From Candidatus Saccharimonadota bacterium (lineage in GTDB: Bacteria > Patescibacteriota > Gracilibacteria > Absconditabacterales > Absconditicoccaceae), in contig JAUIDC010000001.1 in assembly GCA_030429145.1 (NCBI GenBank), forward strand, positions 510,001 through 542,000: a DNA stretch of 32,000 nt, written 5' to 3'. The notes under the pieces were generated by a model. That model ran no database searches, had not been told where the DNA came from, and saw only the letters and a program-made list of their open reading frames with translations. Each line of letters opens with the position of its first letter. The first letter of the stretch is position 1. A program made the translations under genes and the position numbers. Below are positions 18,985 to 24,021 of the stretch, one piece after another.

Positions 18985-19505
18985 TTTATCTCTTGAATGA
19001 TATTTTGAACCGCTTTTACTTCATAGTAGTGGCTGTCTCATTCATAGAAATGGCCAATGGTTTGTAATGATCCATTTGAAAAACACTGTGTCACTTCCTC
19101 TGGAGTCCCTGCAGGATCTTTTGTCTGTTGCACTATATGAATAGGTTGGTCGTAGGAAATCTCTTTGAGTGTCTTGGTCAGATCTCGTCCTAATGTCTCG
19201 GTGGCAAAGCGTATGGGAAACCCAGTAAACAGTACGAGGTCTGGTCTTAATTCAAAATGTTTCATTGCCTCGAGAGCAACAAGACATCCTGCAGATTTTG
19301 CGACAATTCCAATCTGTCTGTTATCCGGTAGAGAATCATATATTTTTTTTGCCTCATAACGGGTGTCTATTGACTTGCTTGTGTCCACCCGATGCTGATA
19401 GGTCCATGCGTTTACTTCAGAAAAATCAAAACTCAGAGCTCTGGCCAGCTCTTGTGTTCGCTCTTTGTTCGAGAGGCTATTGCCTCAGAGGAGGTAGAGG
19501 TGCAT
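18969..19505 (-). CDS. Alpha/beta-hydrolase-fold protein (small serine hydrolase, 178 aa)
   Basis: MHLYLLGGNS... (the oxyanion-type HG/GG region contains a TGA), a nucleophile-elbow-like AKSAG, and a C-terminal G-D-S-H region. Two in-frame TGAs (19476 and 19038). TAA stop at 18969. Confidence 0.5.
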
Positions 19506-19655
19506 GTGAAAGTGTCTTAAAACAACTATCTATGATATTAATGCTGTTCCTGTGATTTTAGGGAGAAACATCATGATAAGACTCAATGGCGAGAAATTCA
19601 AGTAAAAGCTCAAAATGATGATAACCATAAGTATACATAACTACTGGATATTGTG

Positions 19656-19683
19656 TTGAGTCGCCAATATCTTTGAATAGATT
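19656..19683 (+). promoter_or_regulatory. Possible promoter of the RiPP operon
   Basis: TTGAGT (19656-19661), a 16-nt spacer, then TAGATT (19678-19683), about 30 nt upstream of the precursor ATG. Weak match only. Confidence 0.3.
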
Positions 19684-19713
19684 AGAGATACTTTATCCTT
19701 AATCAATCTACTC

Positions 19714-19929
19714 ATGGTATTAAGACCACTTAACAATCCAAGCGATTCATTGGAAAAGGTTGTAGAAGATCTTAAAAAAAACTGAGTTGATGTTGTAGTA
19801 TACGAGGAAAAAAAAGAGATTGAAGATGTTTTTGCTTCTAAGTGTGACAATGGAGGGTCGTCTTCTGCAGCATGTGCCAATTCTCAGTCATGTGGAAGTT
19901 TCACTGAGGAAGTTACAAAAGCTGCATAA
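19714..19929 (+). CDS. Candidate RiPP precursor peptide (71 aa)
   Basis: MVLRPLNNPSDSLEKVVEDLKKN-G-VDVVVYEEKKEIEDVFASKCDNGGSSSAACANSQSCGSFTEEVTKAA. It has an acidic leader followed by a Cys/Ser/Gly-rich C-terminal segment with an internal GG. It lies immediately upstream of the peptidase/dehydrogenase/YcaO genes. One in-frame TGA (19783). TAA stop. Absent from the standard-code track, which shows only an antisense ORF here. Confidence 0.55.
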
Positions 19930-19944
19930 TTCGCAATTGCGATC

Positions 19945-19975
19945 AGGAGGCCTTTAGGCTTCCTTTTCTTTATTT
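19945..19975 (+). terminator. Attenuator / leaky terminator hairpin after the precursor gene
   Basis: 8-bp stem AGGAGGCC / GGCTTCCT (one G-U pair), loop TTTA, then the T-rich tract TTTCTTTATTT, positioned between the precursor and the first enzyme gene. Confidence 0.5.
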
Positions 19976-19994
19976 GTATTCATTTGCATCGTAG

Positions 19995-20741
19995 ATGGGA
20001 TATCCAAGATATAAAGAAAATCGAATGGTTGAAGCTACGCCAGGACAATGTAGTATAGCTGCCGTCATGTGAGTATTGAATTATTTTTGGTATACTGATT
20101 TCACGAAAAGAGATACGTGGGAAATGATGCAGATCATGAAAAAATGAGCGTATAGGTGGAATCAAGATGCTTTATTGACCGAGGAGGAGATAGCATTGAG
20201 GTTGGCTGAACACGGATTTGATATAAAGATTTTTTATTCTACGACAGAGGAAAAGCGAAGAGACTTTGTTGAGCACCCAACATGAGAGAAATATAAAGAA
20301 TTTTTGAAGCCTCAGTATCACAAATATGTAAAAGGTGATTATCGGGTAGATCCTAATAAGTGGGCAATTCATGAATGACATAGGAATACAGTCACAGACA
20401 CTTCTATTCACAAAAAACTTTTGCAAAATAAGAACGTCTCTATGGAGTGGTCTTCGTCAATAGGCAAACAGGTGAAAGCGTATCAAAATGATGGGGCCCT
20501 TTTTATTCTTTGACTTGACTCATATGTGTTGCACAAAAAGGAAAAGCCTGAGTGAGCTCCCCTTGGCTGACACATAGTCGTAACAACAGGCATAGAGGGT
20601 GGTCAGTTCAAAATTTTTGACCCGGGTCCTCCTTTGTGAAATGGATACCTTAAATCTCAGGACGTAGTAGAAGATGCAATAAAAGATCGGGGTGATTATA
20701 TGTTTATTCTCGTTAAAGAAAGGAATGCAGGAGCTGCTTAG
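19995..20741 (+). CDS. Standalone C39-like papain-fold cysteine peptidase (Peptidase_C39_2 type), putative leader peptidase
   Basis: Verified codon by codon: 248 aa with 8 in-frame TGAs (20070, 20145, 20283, 20376, 20511, 20553, 20568, 20637). Catalytic-type motifs are present: TPGQCSIAAVMGVLNYF (Cys codon 20049-20051) and GGHIVVTTGIEGGQFKIFDPG (His codon 20571-20573). TAG stop. Confidence 0.75.
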
Positions 20742-20772
20742 AATTAATAAGTTAGCTCACGTATATGCATAT

Positions 20773-21717
20773 ATGAACAGAATACATATTCGTACATATA
20801 AAAAGCATATTTCCGTGCCATTTAGTGAGTTAACTTATAGTACTCTCATAGAGTTGTGACAGATATATTGTTTTGAGAAATCAGAGGTGGAGTCGTCTCT
20901 AGGAAAACATGTAGTACGCCTCTTGTTAGAAGTAGGTTTCTTTATATCTGTACAGGATGGAAATAGTGGAGTTGAATCATGGGAGGCAGAGAGATATATG
21001 CATAATCCATCGCCCACTTTTACGCCTCTTGCGGATGCCCAGTTGAGATCTATATATAATTCATGAGAGTTATATATCGATTCACTGTGGTGAACTAGCC
21101 TAAAAGAGTATGAGTACATGCCGGTAGAGAGAGAAAATAGTAAATTAAATGACTATTTTGAGAACGTATGCTCTACAAGGTTTCTAAAGAAAGAAGATCT
21201 GCCAGAAGACATAAATGATATAGAACAACAAGGCTTGGCTTTGCTAAAAAATATTTTCTCTCCAAATGCACAAGGGCACTATAAGTATGGTAGTTGAGGT
21301 GGTTTATATTCTATTTTTCCTCTTTGCTTTACAAGACAAGATGTGCTATACTCTTATGATCATAGAAAAAAGAAATTTTTCTACAAAAAAATACCATGAC
21401 TTTATAACTGATTTATTCAAAATTGTCTTATAGGGGGTGCTGACAATGTGTTTTCAATGTATAATTTTTTTATCTTATTAGTTGCAGATACGAGAAGTGT
21501 ATATAAAAAATATGGTAATAGGGGGTTTAAACATTTTTATCTTGAGTCTTGAGCTATATGAGCTTTGATACGTTTGTTTTCCGCTGTTGCAGAGTACAAA
21601 CAAATAGAGTTGCAATGATATAGGGAAGAACCCATTTATAATGTATTGGAAGAGAGTCAGTTTTTCACTGGATTGGAAAATATTATGATAACTCATCTTT
21701 TAGCTTTGAGAATATAA
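20773..21717 (+). CDS. SagB-type (McbC-like) FMN-dependent azoline dehydrogenase, nitroreductase superfamily
   Basis: Verified codon by codon: 314 aa with 9 in-frame TGAs. Motifs are KYGS-G-GGLYSIFP (SagB PSGGGLYP-like, TGA at 21295) and RGFKHFYLES-G-AI-G-ALIRLFSAVAEY (lEaGh..Qn..L.A). TAA stop overlaps the next ATG (TAATG). Confidence 0.8.
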
Positions 21718-23237
21718 TGTTGTGGATAGTAGGTGATGAAATTCGTTGTTATGATAAAGAGAAGCAAAAGCTTTTGGAGGGTGATTCTAATGCTATTGCC
21801 GCGTATATAAGCTCTCATTTCGTAGAGTTATTTCAGAAAAATACTGTGGTAGATACATTTTGTTCAATAAACCAAGTGCTTGATGAGGATTGGCTTTTCT
21901 TTCATGTCATGAGAAAAAAGAGATTTATCGTTAGTGAAAAAATTGTAAGATATTATGGTGTTCAAAAAATAAAAGCTATCTTGGTAGACTTTGATCTTTG
22001 ACATTATAATAGAGAGTTAGAATGCGTACGCTTTTATGCAGAATGAGAAATATTCACAGAGTTTCAAACTATACATATTAAGGAAAAGAAAGATCTTTAT
22101 AGAGAAGGATTCCATACTCTCATACATCATCCTAGCAACTCTCAAATTTTTATAGCAGAGACTATTTTTTCATATGGATTAGGAAATTATAAAGGATGAA
22201 CAATCACGAATATAGGTTGATGAGTTGCTTCTACTCAGTCCTTGGCCAGAAAAAAATCTTTGTCAGAGGCCATAGAAAGATTAAATGGTAGCTTGGTTGT
22301 TTGAAGAGATTCTTCTGTATACAAAGATTGCGAACTGGATATGTCTTTCAGATGCCTCATTGAAAATCATGGTATCTATGTGTGACAAGAACTATTATGT
22401 AGAAAAGGAAAGACTCTCTTAGGAGGCAAAGCCCTCATTCCTGAAGAACTACTATTTTACCCATATGAAAAAGATAGATATGGTTATCCAGCTACATCTT
22501 CCGGTATGGCCACTCATGTAACCCTAAGGGAAGCCCTTGAAAACGCTCTTTTCGAAATAATAGAGAGAGATGCATTTTTGTTATTTCGATTGCTTAAGAA
22601 AGGTGGATATAAAATTGATCTATCCACTCTTAACGAGAATCACAAGGAGAGTATTGATAAGTTGGAAGCAGAATGACTTACTCTGAATATCATTTCCTTA
22701 CATTTTGACAATCCTGCGCCTGTCATATTATTGATGTGCAATAAAGGAAGAAGAACCATTATTGCACTTGGTGTTTCCTATTCTATACAAGAGGCTATAA
22801 GCAAGGCATTAAGAGAGATTTCCTATGCAAAGGTCTTTTTTACAAAGGAGCTAAAGAGTAATATAGAAGAATGAAGTGTACAGTTTCATACGCTTTCTTA
22901 TTTGCGTGAGAGTAGTTATCCGAAGGTGAGTTGGATATTAAAGTCCCCTGTTAAGACGCTTGGTTGGTTGGTAACTCAATTTCCAAGTTATAACCACTAT
23001 AGGCAAATTGCTCAACATTATCGCGCTATCGGAGTTGGGTTGTATTCCTATAGATACAGAAATATCATAAACGAAATATTTCATAGATTTACTGTCAGAG
23101 TGCTTTCTGATTCTTTATTACCTATTTATTTTAATAAAGAGATACCTAGGCACATTAAGGGAAGTAGAAGATTGGAAAAGCGGAAAGCAAAAATGAATGT
23201 AAAAAATCTAAATGAAGATGTTCATCCTTTGGGATAG
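21717..23237 (+). CDS. YcaO-domain cyclodehydratase (TOMM D-protein type) with a ~170-aa N-terminal extension
   Basis: 506 aa with 9 in-frame TGAs (21999, 22044, 22197, 22218, 22221, 22302, 22383, 22674, 22872). YcaO ATP/Mg motifs are present: IG-G-G-VASTQSLARKKSLSEAIERL (22257-22283), PATSSGMATHVTLREA (22491 onward) and ALFEIIERDAF (22545-22577). C-terminal ...DVHPLG. The frame was checked across 22002-22440. Confidence 0.85.
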
Positions 23238-23275: not shown

Positions 23276-23306
23276 AAAAAGCCGGACAGATATTCCGGCT
23301 TTTTTA
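23276..23306. terminator. Bidirectional rho-independent terminator
   Basis: AAAAA-AGCCGGA-cagatat-TCCGGCT-TTTTT, between the convergent YcaO gene and the 23326-23865 gene. Confidence 0.8.
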
Positions 23307-23325: not shown

Positions 23326-23865
23326 CTACCCAGTGTAGATTGGTCTTTTTTTTGCATCAAGGTAGGAACTTTGCTTTTCGTGAGGAGTTGGCTCAAGCTC
23401 CAACTGGAGCTTGTTTTCCCATTCTGATTCGGCCATCATGAAACTTCGTCGTGCTGGTGTCTCCTTGCAACGACACCCAAGCGTGTACATTACAGAGTTG
23501 TCCTCCATGTTATATTTATGTACTTTTGGGAGTTCATCACATAGTACACATGGGTACACTTGGTCTTCAGAGAGTAGGTTAAATAATTTCCTTACCCTTT
23601 TCAGTATCGCTTCGGAATTTGCAGGATCGCTATACATAGCAGGATTAGTTAAGTCCCTCGGAATGTAGTAGTACAAGAATTCCTTATTGTCAGGTCTGCG
23701 GAATTGCTCACTAATATCTCCGCAGGAACAATGAATTCCCATCTCCTTGAAAAGAGCTATTAGTGTTGCAAATTCACTTACTGCCGATTCATCCTCCTGA
23801 ACAAATGCAATAAGATGGTCCTTTAAAAGATCTTGCATCTTTTTTGTATCCATAGTTGTTTCCAT
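23326..23865 (-). CDS. Hypothetical Cys-rich protein (179 aa), possible zinc-binding
   Basis: Uninterrupted ORF with a TAG stop. Cys pairs are HCSCG, CVLCDE and GCRC. I recognise no family. Convergent with the RiPP operon. Confidence 0.5.
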   Translation of the reverse strand: METTMDTKKMQDLLKDHLIAFVQEDESAVSEFATLIALFKEMGIHCSCGDISEQFRRPDNKEFLYYYIPRDLTNPAMYSDPANSEAILKRVRKLFNLLSEDQVYPCVLCDELPKVHKYNMEDNSVMYTLGCRCKETPARRSFMMAESEWENKLQLELEPTPHEKQSSYLDAKKRPIYTG

Positions 23866-24021
23866 AATTTTTTCTTTTTAGAAGCAGATTTTAAACTTCC
23901 TTCTTAGTTTGTCAAGCCTTCTGTGATAGAGTTAGGAGTTTGAATTTGATAATATTCTTGCAATTTTCAACCTAAAACCTAGTATCTAACTCTAGGTTTT
24001 TATTATTGCAAAAGAGAGTAA

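Follow-up and report, generated by a model that had tools for sequence, protein, structure and literature searches.

The window analysed here is a stretch of 32,000 nucleotides from Candidatus Saccharimonadota bacterium (Absconditabacterales), in which a small gene, termed gene A herein, stands first in an operon with the one-strand gene order A-P-B-D. We consider it highly probable that gene A encodes the precursor of a linear azol(in)e-containing peptide (LAP), that is, a peptide made on the ribosome and modified after translation (RiPP), of the thiazole/oxazole-modified microcin (TOMM) type. The operon is read with genetic code 25. The operon spans about 3.5 kb; the overlap is 17 nt for P and B, and 1 nt for D and the stop of B. 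Sequence comparisons point to A-P-B-D as a variant of linear azole-containing peptide systems that is restricted to the candidate phyla radiation (CPR).

19714..19929 (+), gene A, predicted precursor peptide, 71 aa under code 25, with stop codon TAA at 19927-19929
19783..19785 (+), in-frame TGA at codon 24 of gene A, read as Gly and located in the leader motif L..G[IV]x[IV] at its invariant Gly
19995..20741 (+), gene P, encoding through eight TGA codons a C39-like protein of 248 aa that has a papain fold and the invariant residues Cys19, His193, and Asp209
20725..21717 (+), gene B, predicted 330-aa SagB/McbC/BmdC-type nitroreductase-fold oxidase with an invariant KYGN and an N-terminal extension of ~175 aa
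21717..23237 (+), gene D, predicted 506-aa YcaO cyclodehydratase with an N-terminal extension of ~170 aa

Gene A and the reading of TGA

Translation of positions 19714-19929 reproduced exactly the peptide given in the original prediction, provided that the TGA at codon 24 is read as Gly, a reading which that prediction had used without remark. The peptide contains Cys44, Cys54, and Cys60, and a Gly-Gly pair at codons 47-48 (19852-19857). Under the standard code the TGA interrupts gene A, and the table 11 list of open reading frames (ORFs) is without it. Once TGA was taken as sense, the summed length of ORFs of at least 100 codons rose from 31 kb to 66 kb, and long ORFs appeared at 19995-20741, 20683-21717, and 21642-23237, where table 11 gave only fragments. 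In a codon-tracked alignment of four YcaO orthologues, TGA columns fell 39 times opposite GGN-Gly, 44 times opposite another TGA, and never opposite TGG-Trp. Because TGA paired with GGN-Gly codons and never with TGG-Trp, the window genome uses code 25, in which TGA encodes Gly. Translation table 25 is familiar from the Absconditabacteria (SR1) and Gracilibacteria. Across the alignment of the precursor family described below, the TGA of gene A occupies an invariant Gly column. Alanyl-tRNA synthetase (AlaRS) was uninformative on the meaning of TGA, with one TGA opposite a variable Met and the other outside the alignment; a tRNA scan of the window found no tRNA and hence gave no suppressor or Gly-tRNA(UCA) evidence.

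The public protein collection likewise lists gene A as a gene of 71 aa (P0010), and the window YcaO is present there as the same protein with W at the nine TGA positions (P0001). Every TGA position of the window proteins appears there as Trp (e.g., P0001, P0006, and P0010), and table 11 ORF lists break most of the window genes into pieces. A run of 71 open codons is by itself within chance, with 168 small ORFs counted in 14-28 kb, and it is because of its conservation across loci that gene A stands above this background.

Conservation and anatomy of the precursor family

For the comparison of loci we used the contigs of YcaO homologues, with small ORFs translated under code 25. A small ORF was found directly 5' of the same enzyme set (P, B, and D, on one strand) in eight other independent loci. 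A leader motif is common to the window (LEKVVEDLKKNgVDV), L002 (ENIVQELKDAGIEV), and L006 (LEALLEDLAAEgIEI), and the three small ORFs likewise have in common a Cys-containing junction and a Ser/Gly/Cys-rich C-terminal half. When the window peptide was searched against 2,605 six-frame segments of the other loci, the equivalent upstream ORFs ranked at the top (E = 6e-7 and 4e-3), and beyond those of L002 and L006 there was no match below E = 5. A hidden Markov model (HMM) of three members found the equivalent ORF in unseen loci of species-representative genomes (L009, 3e-11; L012, 3e-10; L011, 2e-8) and also recovered it in L013 (4e-13), likewise unseen. Finally, we searched 1.84 billion representative proteins exhaustively with a profile and obtained 27 matches at E <= 1e-3, about 20 of which are peptides of 43-91 aa. 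Two of these, P0040 and P0051, lead to contigs L019 and L021, both of which carry complete A-P-B-D clusters in TGA-recoded genomes.

The precursor family thus defined has about 20 members with 20-40% sequence identity. No NCBIfam or Pfam model matched any of them, the sole source name found for any member was 'hypothetical protein', and our literature and model searches found no paper or curated family model describing the family. The original prediction had proposed aligning homologous small ORFs beside orthologous YcaO genes; the alignment revealed a conserved leader and a variable core rich in Cys, Ser, and Gly. It had also named outcomes that would speak against gene A, among them that the ORF would be missing beside orthologous clusters or that a better-conserved small ORF would lie nearby. 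The ORF was conserved at orthologous clusters, no better-conserved small ORF was found near the window cluster, and none of the other small ORFs there was conserved or intergenic. Because neither outcome was observed, gene A is a genuine and conserved precursor-peptide gene of the YcaO cluster.

One branch of the family is heavily sampled. The P0013/P0020 cluster, which holds the L011-type peptide, comprised 39 near-identical variants that differed by scattered single substitutions only. The contigs carrying them number in the hundreds, with 351 for P0020, and some reach about 1 Mb. The source of the L011-type peptide is an abundant, widely sampled organism.

The window peptide can be divided into three parts as follows.

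19714..19839 (+), leader region, up to about residue 42: SLEKVVEDLKKNG (helix-like), VDVVVYE (strand-like), then EIEDVFAS
19840..19899 (+), probable core, residues 43 to about 62, KCDNGGSSSAACANSQSCGS: Cys44, Cys54, Cys60, and seven Ser, with the Gly-Gly inside
19900..19926 (+), acidic C-terminal tail or follower FTEEVTKAA: the -AA end and the acidic stretch preceding it

Features were counted over the 20 full-length members of the family. All 20 carry the leader motif L..G[IV]x[IV], in agreement with the N-terminal leader of ~45 aa that had been proposed, and in all 20 the first Cys falls at residue 35-46. The residues ahead of this Cys are usually [LF]-A-[ST]-[KQ], giving a conserved junction [LF]A[ST][KQ]C, and the segment past the junction Cys is hypervariable across the family. 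The boundary between leader and core of gene A is probably located just before Cys44. Some members have strict Cys-x-x repeats (P0040, CSACKGCSRCASCSSCSGCS, with seven Cys at a spacing of 3; P0042; and P0051), and a Cys-x-x-Cys spacing was found in 8/20 members overall. The cores of L009, L012, and L006 contain Gly-rich Ser/Cys tracts similar to the microcin B17 core. The window core, CDNGGSSSAACANSQSCGS, is of a mixed type that is neither a strict repeat nor a Gly-rich tract, with Cys spacings of 10 and 6. Many of the core glycines in L006 (358-570), L012 (3842-4069), and P0035 are TGA codons, with eight TGA in the L006 core. Pipelines that treat TGA as a stop shorten Gly-rich precursors (e.g., P0045, P0046, and P0018), and reading TGA as Trp gives a false Trp-rich peptide.

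The third part of the precursor, an acidic C-terminal tail ending in -AA, was absent from the original prediction. Eleven of the 20 members end in -AA, i.e., the window (19921-19926), L009, L011, L012, P0034, P0035, P0037, P0039, P0040, P0042, and P0051, in the variants KAA, LAA, MAA, IAA, and EAA. An acidic stretch precedes it, as seen in the window (FTEEVTKAA), L012 (DIFETELQKAA), and P0051 (PETFEEEKMAA). The SsrA degradation tag ends in -LAA, which the precursor ends resemble; the -AA end might mark unprocessed peptide for degradation or serve in recognition. Because the leader is conserved, the core variable, and the tail acidic and often closed by -AA, the precursor is tripartite in organization.

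Enzymes, transcription, and competing explanations

The putative catalytic residues of P, Cys19, His193, and Asp209, were invariant in seven orthologues, and Pfam C39_2 gave matches in 5/7 members, the best at 1.2e-3 and sub-threshold. A PDB sequence search with P found no match. Foldseek matches to a structural model of P were all of the papain fold, including 3erv (C39-like, 2.9e-3), phytochelatin synthase, PeiR, the C39 domains of PCAT1 and ComA, and AvrRpt2, as well as the amide-forming CtaG, CcbD, and AziU3. The peptidase that had been predicted at 19995-20741 is therefore C39-like in its invariant triad, its sub-threshold C39_2 matches, and its fold. The model supports a papain/C39-like fold with Cys, His, and Asp in order, and does not support membership in a curated family or an activity. 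Gene order had suggested P as an McbB-like E1 scaffold, a candidate that we rejected, as P showed no E1/ThiF signal and only papain/C39-like fold matches. Homologues of P also occur elsewhere: L016 (8001-8738; also L017 and L018) encodes a 245-aa P homologue with 46% identity beside a 175-aa uncharacterized protein and a NUDIX hydrolase. Because there is no YcaO or SagB gene in the locus, the P family is not confined to peptide clusters.

For B, a family profile searched against the PDB gave 2.9e-9 for 3eo7, a SagB-like nitroreductase, 2e-4 for BmdC, a thiazoline oxidase, and a marginal 0.28 for McbC. Lys262-Tyr263 of B is invariant, and a SagB/McbC-type oxidase with this Lys-Tyr motif was present in every cluster. 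These similarities indicate that B is an azoline dehydrogenase of the SagB/McbC type, with predicted dependence on flavin mononucleotide (FMN). D matched PF02624 above its cut-off (7.4e-22) and the SagD-family model TIGR03604 below its curated cut-off (1.3e-25), the SagD family being its best curated match. Its profile matches included MJ1094, MusD, TruD, LynD, and McbD (5e-3, marginal). D is clearly a YcaO, of the azoline-forming kind. Two loci hold additional genes: L011 (7354-9475) and L012 (7366-9515) have two extra genes 3' of the YcaO gene, one with a radical-SAM-type CxxxCxxC (GCTKGCFFCGC) and the other with a methyltransferase motif I (VGCGGG). On these motifs alone, they may be additional tailoring enzymes.

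The following signals bear on transcription.

19945..19975 (+), intrinsic-terminator-like hairpin and T-tract between A and P: stem 19945-19964, T-tract 19965-19975
19656..19683 (+), weak candidate promoter TTGAGT-16 nt-TAGATT, 8/12, its -10 element ending 30 nt before the gene A ATG
23276..23304 (+), operon-closing terminator-like hairpin, 11 bp

The hairpin between A and P has a stem of 8 bp (five of them G-C), a 4-nt loop, and the tail TTTCTTTATT. It folds at -17.1 kcal/mol (z = -3.8), which none of 200 shuffled sequences equaled. A hairpin and T-run, unrelated in sequence, follow the precursor stop in 8/9 loci, overlapping the stop codon in L021. The hairpin and T-tract that the original prediction had noted after the stop of gene A are thus real and recurrent. 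Terminator-like hairpins are present at many gene ends in the window, and the A-P hairpin is of the same kind and strength. An Rfam scan of 19400-20100 gave a chance miRNA match only (E = 0.89). The A-P spacer measures 52-73 nt in six of the seven measured loci and is mostly taken up by the hairpin and T-run; in L006 it is 162 nt. In the window, 19 nt separate the T-tract from the ATG of P. A precedes P, in the same orientation, in all nine loci.

Promoters were scanned with a cut-off of 9/12 consensus matches; the scan is crude, and the promoter rules of these bacteria may differ. On the + strand, positions 19000-21333 contained no promoter of at least 9/12, and the A-P spacer of the window gave 6/12 at best. 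Because no promoter fits before P, it is likely that P, B, and D are expressed by read-through past the A-P hairpin. The candidate promoter upstream of gene A was discarded as evidence, since it scored 8/12 in the window and promoters ahead of A were uneven across loci, with a strong equivalent only in L013 (11/12). Elsewhere in the window, a terminator hairpin at 15605-15628 (+) is followed by a perfect TTGACA-16-TATAAT promoter (15636-15663, 12/12), because of which we conclude that the organism uses canonical sigma-70-type signals.

Taken together, these features suggest a pathway in which the enzymes would bind the leader, with the N-terminal domains of B or D as possible docking places. 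With ATP, D would convert Cys44, Cys54, Cys60, and perhaps some Ser to azolines, which B would oxidize to azoles. P would remove the leader and/or the tail, at a site probably upstream of Cys44 rather than at Gly47-Gly48. The hairpin and T-tract at 19945-19975 would end most transcripts after A, leaving P, B, and D to read-through and yielding more precursor mRNA than enzyme mRNA.

A number of observations weigh against assigning gene A to an azole-forming pathway of this kind, or against its individual steps. Most azoline-forming YcaOs need an E1-like or ocin-ThiF-like partner, and searches of the three enzymes with Pfam, NCBIfam, and PDB profiles, in which the extended N-termini of B and D were also searched separately, found no E1-like C protein, ocin-ThiF-like protein, or RiPP recognition element (RRE). 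Either B or D may have a divergent RRE at its N-terminus. An AlphaFold2 (AF2) model of D, aimed at its N-terminal domain, was unusable (predicted local distance difference test [pLDDT] 41); the N-terminus of B gives the by-eye impression of a beta-beta-beta-alpha-alpha-alpha order, which no Pfam or PDB profile supported. The family assignments of the other two enzymes fall short of curated cut-offs, with window P scoring 19.5 bits against the C39_2 cut-off of 24, and B scoring 21.5 bits (1.3e-4) against the cut-off of 78.4 for the SagB model TIGR03605. The AF2 model of P reached a predicted template modeling score (pTM) of 0.73 and a pLDDT of 68.6, with the Cys19 segment below 50; it was built on the database sequence with W at TGA positions, which probably lowered its quality, and its Foldseek E-values were weak (>= 2.9e-3). 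Azole formation on the gene A peptide is predicted from the enzyme families, and the window core, with only three Cys, is less repetitive than typical LAP cores. Conservation also has exceptions. For the orthologous cluster of L001 (8348-11500, the same as L008), from an Absconditabacterales metagenome-assembled genome (MAG), no precursor ORF could be detected within 10 kb, and the first 10 conserved codons are apparently missing from the P gene; the precursor may have been lost or be encoded elsewhere. As for transcription, L019 has a T-rich tract only and no hairpin past the precursor stop, the promoter upstream of gene A is under the cut-off, and the partial ('leaky') nature of termination at the A-P hairpin is itself deduced from sequence.

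Among the competing explanations, two concern how the precursor is cut and transcribed. The original prediction had read Gly47-Gly48 as a double-glycine site for the C39-like P, leaving a 23-aa core (SSSAACANSQSCGSFTEEVTKAA). C39 enzymes cleave past GG, the triad of P is intact, and a C-x-[NH]-G-G-S subfamily (window, L013, L002, P0044, and P0045) retains the pair; we nevertheless regard cleavage here as unlikely. A GG occurs within three residues past the junction Cys in just 10/20 members, and it is missing from complete clusters with the same P enzyme (L019/P0040 and L021/P0051) as well as from P0042, P0050, and P0037; where members are Gly-rich, GG simply reflects the makeup of the core. 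The residues ahead of Gly47-Gly48, EDVFASKCDN, do not match LSxxELxxIxGG with its hydrophobic positions -4, -7, and -12, a departure that the original prediction had itself pointed out, and the alignment placed the conserved helix-like leader motif ~25 residues upstream of GG, out of register with the double-glycine consensus. P is without a fused ABC transporter, and the flanking genes tested include none. Where the core is of the repeat type, the Cys-x-x series starts with the junction Cys, which therefore belongs to the core, so a cut after Gly48 would strand Cys44, one of the three Cys, on the leader side and discard a modifiable residue, which the proposed 23-aa core does not accommodate. 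Because GG is found in only half of the members and the Cys preceding it is part of the core series, the Gly-Gly is most likely an internal feature of the core and not a cleavage site. A somewhat less remote prospect, although still doubtful, is that the A-P hairpin is a complete terminator or an mRNA-stabilizing 3' end, with A monocistronic and P-B-D independent or under a non-canonical promoter of their own. The hairpin is like those closing other transcription units in the window, the 162-nt spacer of L006 could hold a promoter, and the consensus scan was crude. Read-through is nonetheless favored by spacers of 52-73 nt in 6/7 loci that are mostly hairpin and T-run, by a best promoter match of 6/12 in the window spacer, and by an A-then-P order that is fixed in nine loci.

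The remaining explanations concern the product. D could install a different modification (thioamide, amidine, or azolines only), or P could be an amide-forming enzyme or transpeptidase, so that no classical linear polyazole would result. Consistent with this, no E1-like partner was found, partner-independent YcaOs exist (amidine formation in bottromycin), the Foldseek matches of P include CtaG, CcbD, and AziU3, and recognition might involve the conserved -AA tail as a second element. We give this little credence, as the SagB/McbC-type oxidase in every cluster points to conversion of azolines to azoles, no TfuA-like gene is present, and the best curated match of D is the SagD family. It is very improbable that gene A is unmodified, be it a small structural, regulatory, or immunity protein or a chance ORF. 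In its favor, the window core is only modestly Cys-rich, but an invariant leader joined to a hypervariable low-complexity C-terminal half is the signature of a RiPP precursor (PMC2674419), the first-gene position ahead of the enzymes is fixed, and frame and motif have been kept across about 20 sequences at 20-40% identity, which argues against a chance ORF. A bolder version of the azole-forming reading, to which we assign a low probability, is an undescribed RiPP architecture confined to TGA-recoded CPR bacteria. Here, a YcaO would act without a known E1/RRE partner, P or the N-termini of B or D would recognize the leader, and the -AA tail would be a second recognition or processing element (e.g., for tail removal or transpeptidation). 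If this were true, these small-genome bacteria, episymbiotic or predatory, might use the product as a weapon or as a factor in host interaction.

The Absconditabacteria and Gracilibacteria are uncultivated, with genomes of ~1 Mb and an altered code, and pipelines that read TGA as stop or Trp break or mistranslate all genes of the cluster. The retention of a 3.5-kb operon of a peptide-antibiotic type in such reduced genomes suggests a role in lifestyle, either in competition or in interaction with host cells. Within the family, a single leader scaffold carries about 20 natural variants of the core, and the family may offer YcaO heterocyclization without the canonical partner, together with a stand-alone C39-like enzyme.

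Among the flanking genes tested, there was no ABC transporter or obvious immunity gene. A divergent alpha/beta-hydrolase-like gene lies upstream of the operon, and the wider flanks are of a housekeeping character: ATP synthase alpha (identified by sequence, not by Pfam), AlaRS, LytR, and a TraG/VirD4-like ATPase. Directly upstream of the operon region, 16510-18960 (+) encodes 816 aa through four TGA codons, with signatures of a TrwB/TraG-type coupling protein and a HerA-like ATPase. Convergent with the operon is a 179-aa ORF (23326-23877, -) that matched no family, carries the Cys pairs CSCG, CVLC, and GCRC, and contains no TGA, compared with eight to nine TGA in each of its neighbors.

Comparison with known systems

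TOMM/LAP systems are marked by a YcaO, a dehydrogenase, a C/F partner protein, and a precursor (PMC2674419, PMC4603692). The precursor is typically 50-70 aa, with a leader that is homologous between clusters and a low-complexity C-terminal part rich in Cys, Ser, and Thr (PMC2674419). A-P-B-D shares the precursor, YcaO, and dehydrogenase, and the profile searches detected no C/F partner in it. In the literature searched we found no account of YcaO peptides from these lineages; a survey of the CPR merely counted YcaO clusters, using antiSMASH (PMC12153355).

Several family members have Cys-x-x repeats like those of heterocycloanthracin/sonorensin (PMC2674419), and both families combine a conserved leader with a variable core length and a conserved extreme C-terminal motif. 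Heterocycloanthracin clusters have a fused cyclodehydratase and an ocin-ThiF-like protein, with precursors that are often far from the enzymes (PMC2674419, PMC4603692), whereas in A-P-B-D the precursor adjoins the enzymes and no ocin-ThiF-like partner was found. The window Cys spacings are 10 and 6, not 3, and its leader does not match TIGR03601. With this leader missing and a different cyclodehydratase architecture, gene A does not belong to the heterocycloanthracin family.

P shares its fold and Cys-His-Asp triad with the C39 domains of ABC transporters (ComA, PCAT1, and LahT), and also differs from them in being stand-alone, with ~95 extra residues between Cys and His and a Glu at the oxyanion Gln position. 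P matches ComA in having a His-Asp spacing of 16 and in placing E13 (the Gln equivalent) at a spacing of 6 from Cys. Compared with double-glycine peptides, the gene A system has no LSxxELxxIxGG leader, no conserved GG, and no ABC transporter, and it does not belong to that family.

The order of precursor, one further protein, dehydrogenase, and YcaO is that of microcin B17 (mcbABCD). The Gly-rich members L009 (GGGGGSCSGACGQGGGGGC) and L012 (GGGGGSCGGSCGQGSGSGGSG) are similar to the core of McbA. However, the protein in the McbB position is papain/C39-like rather than E1-like, the leader is an unrelated one, the core of the window peptide is not rich in Gly, and there are no export or immunity genes of the mcbEFG type. 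Lacking an McbB-like E1 partner and a Gly-rich core, the gene A cluster is not of the microcin B17 family.

Streptolysin S (sag) is excluded as the family of the precursor because leader and protease differ. It has a SagC/E1-like partner, none being detectable in A-P-B-D, and its protease is the CaaX-type SagE, compared with a stand-alone papain/C39-like protein here. In contrast to sag, A-P-B-D is without ABC transporter genes, its leader is unrelated to known leaders, and it has the acidic -AA tail and a code 25 reading with TGA-encoded Gly in the peptide. The two systems are nevertheless alike in that a small precursor gene comes first, followed by genes for a SagB-type dehydrogenase and a SagD-type YcaO, and in that a conserved leader precedes a variable core rich in Cys, Ser, and Gly. 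In sag, a terminator between sagA and sagB separates the precursor gene from the enzyme genes, as the A-P hairpin does in A-P-B-D.

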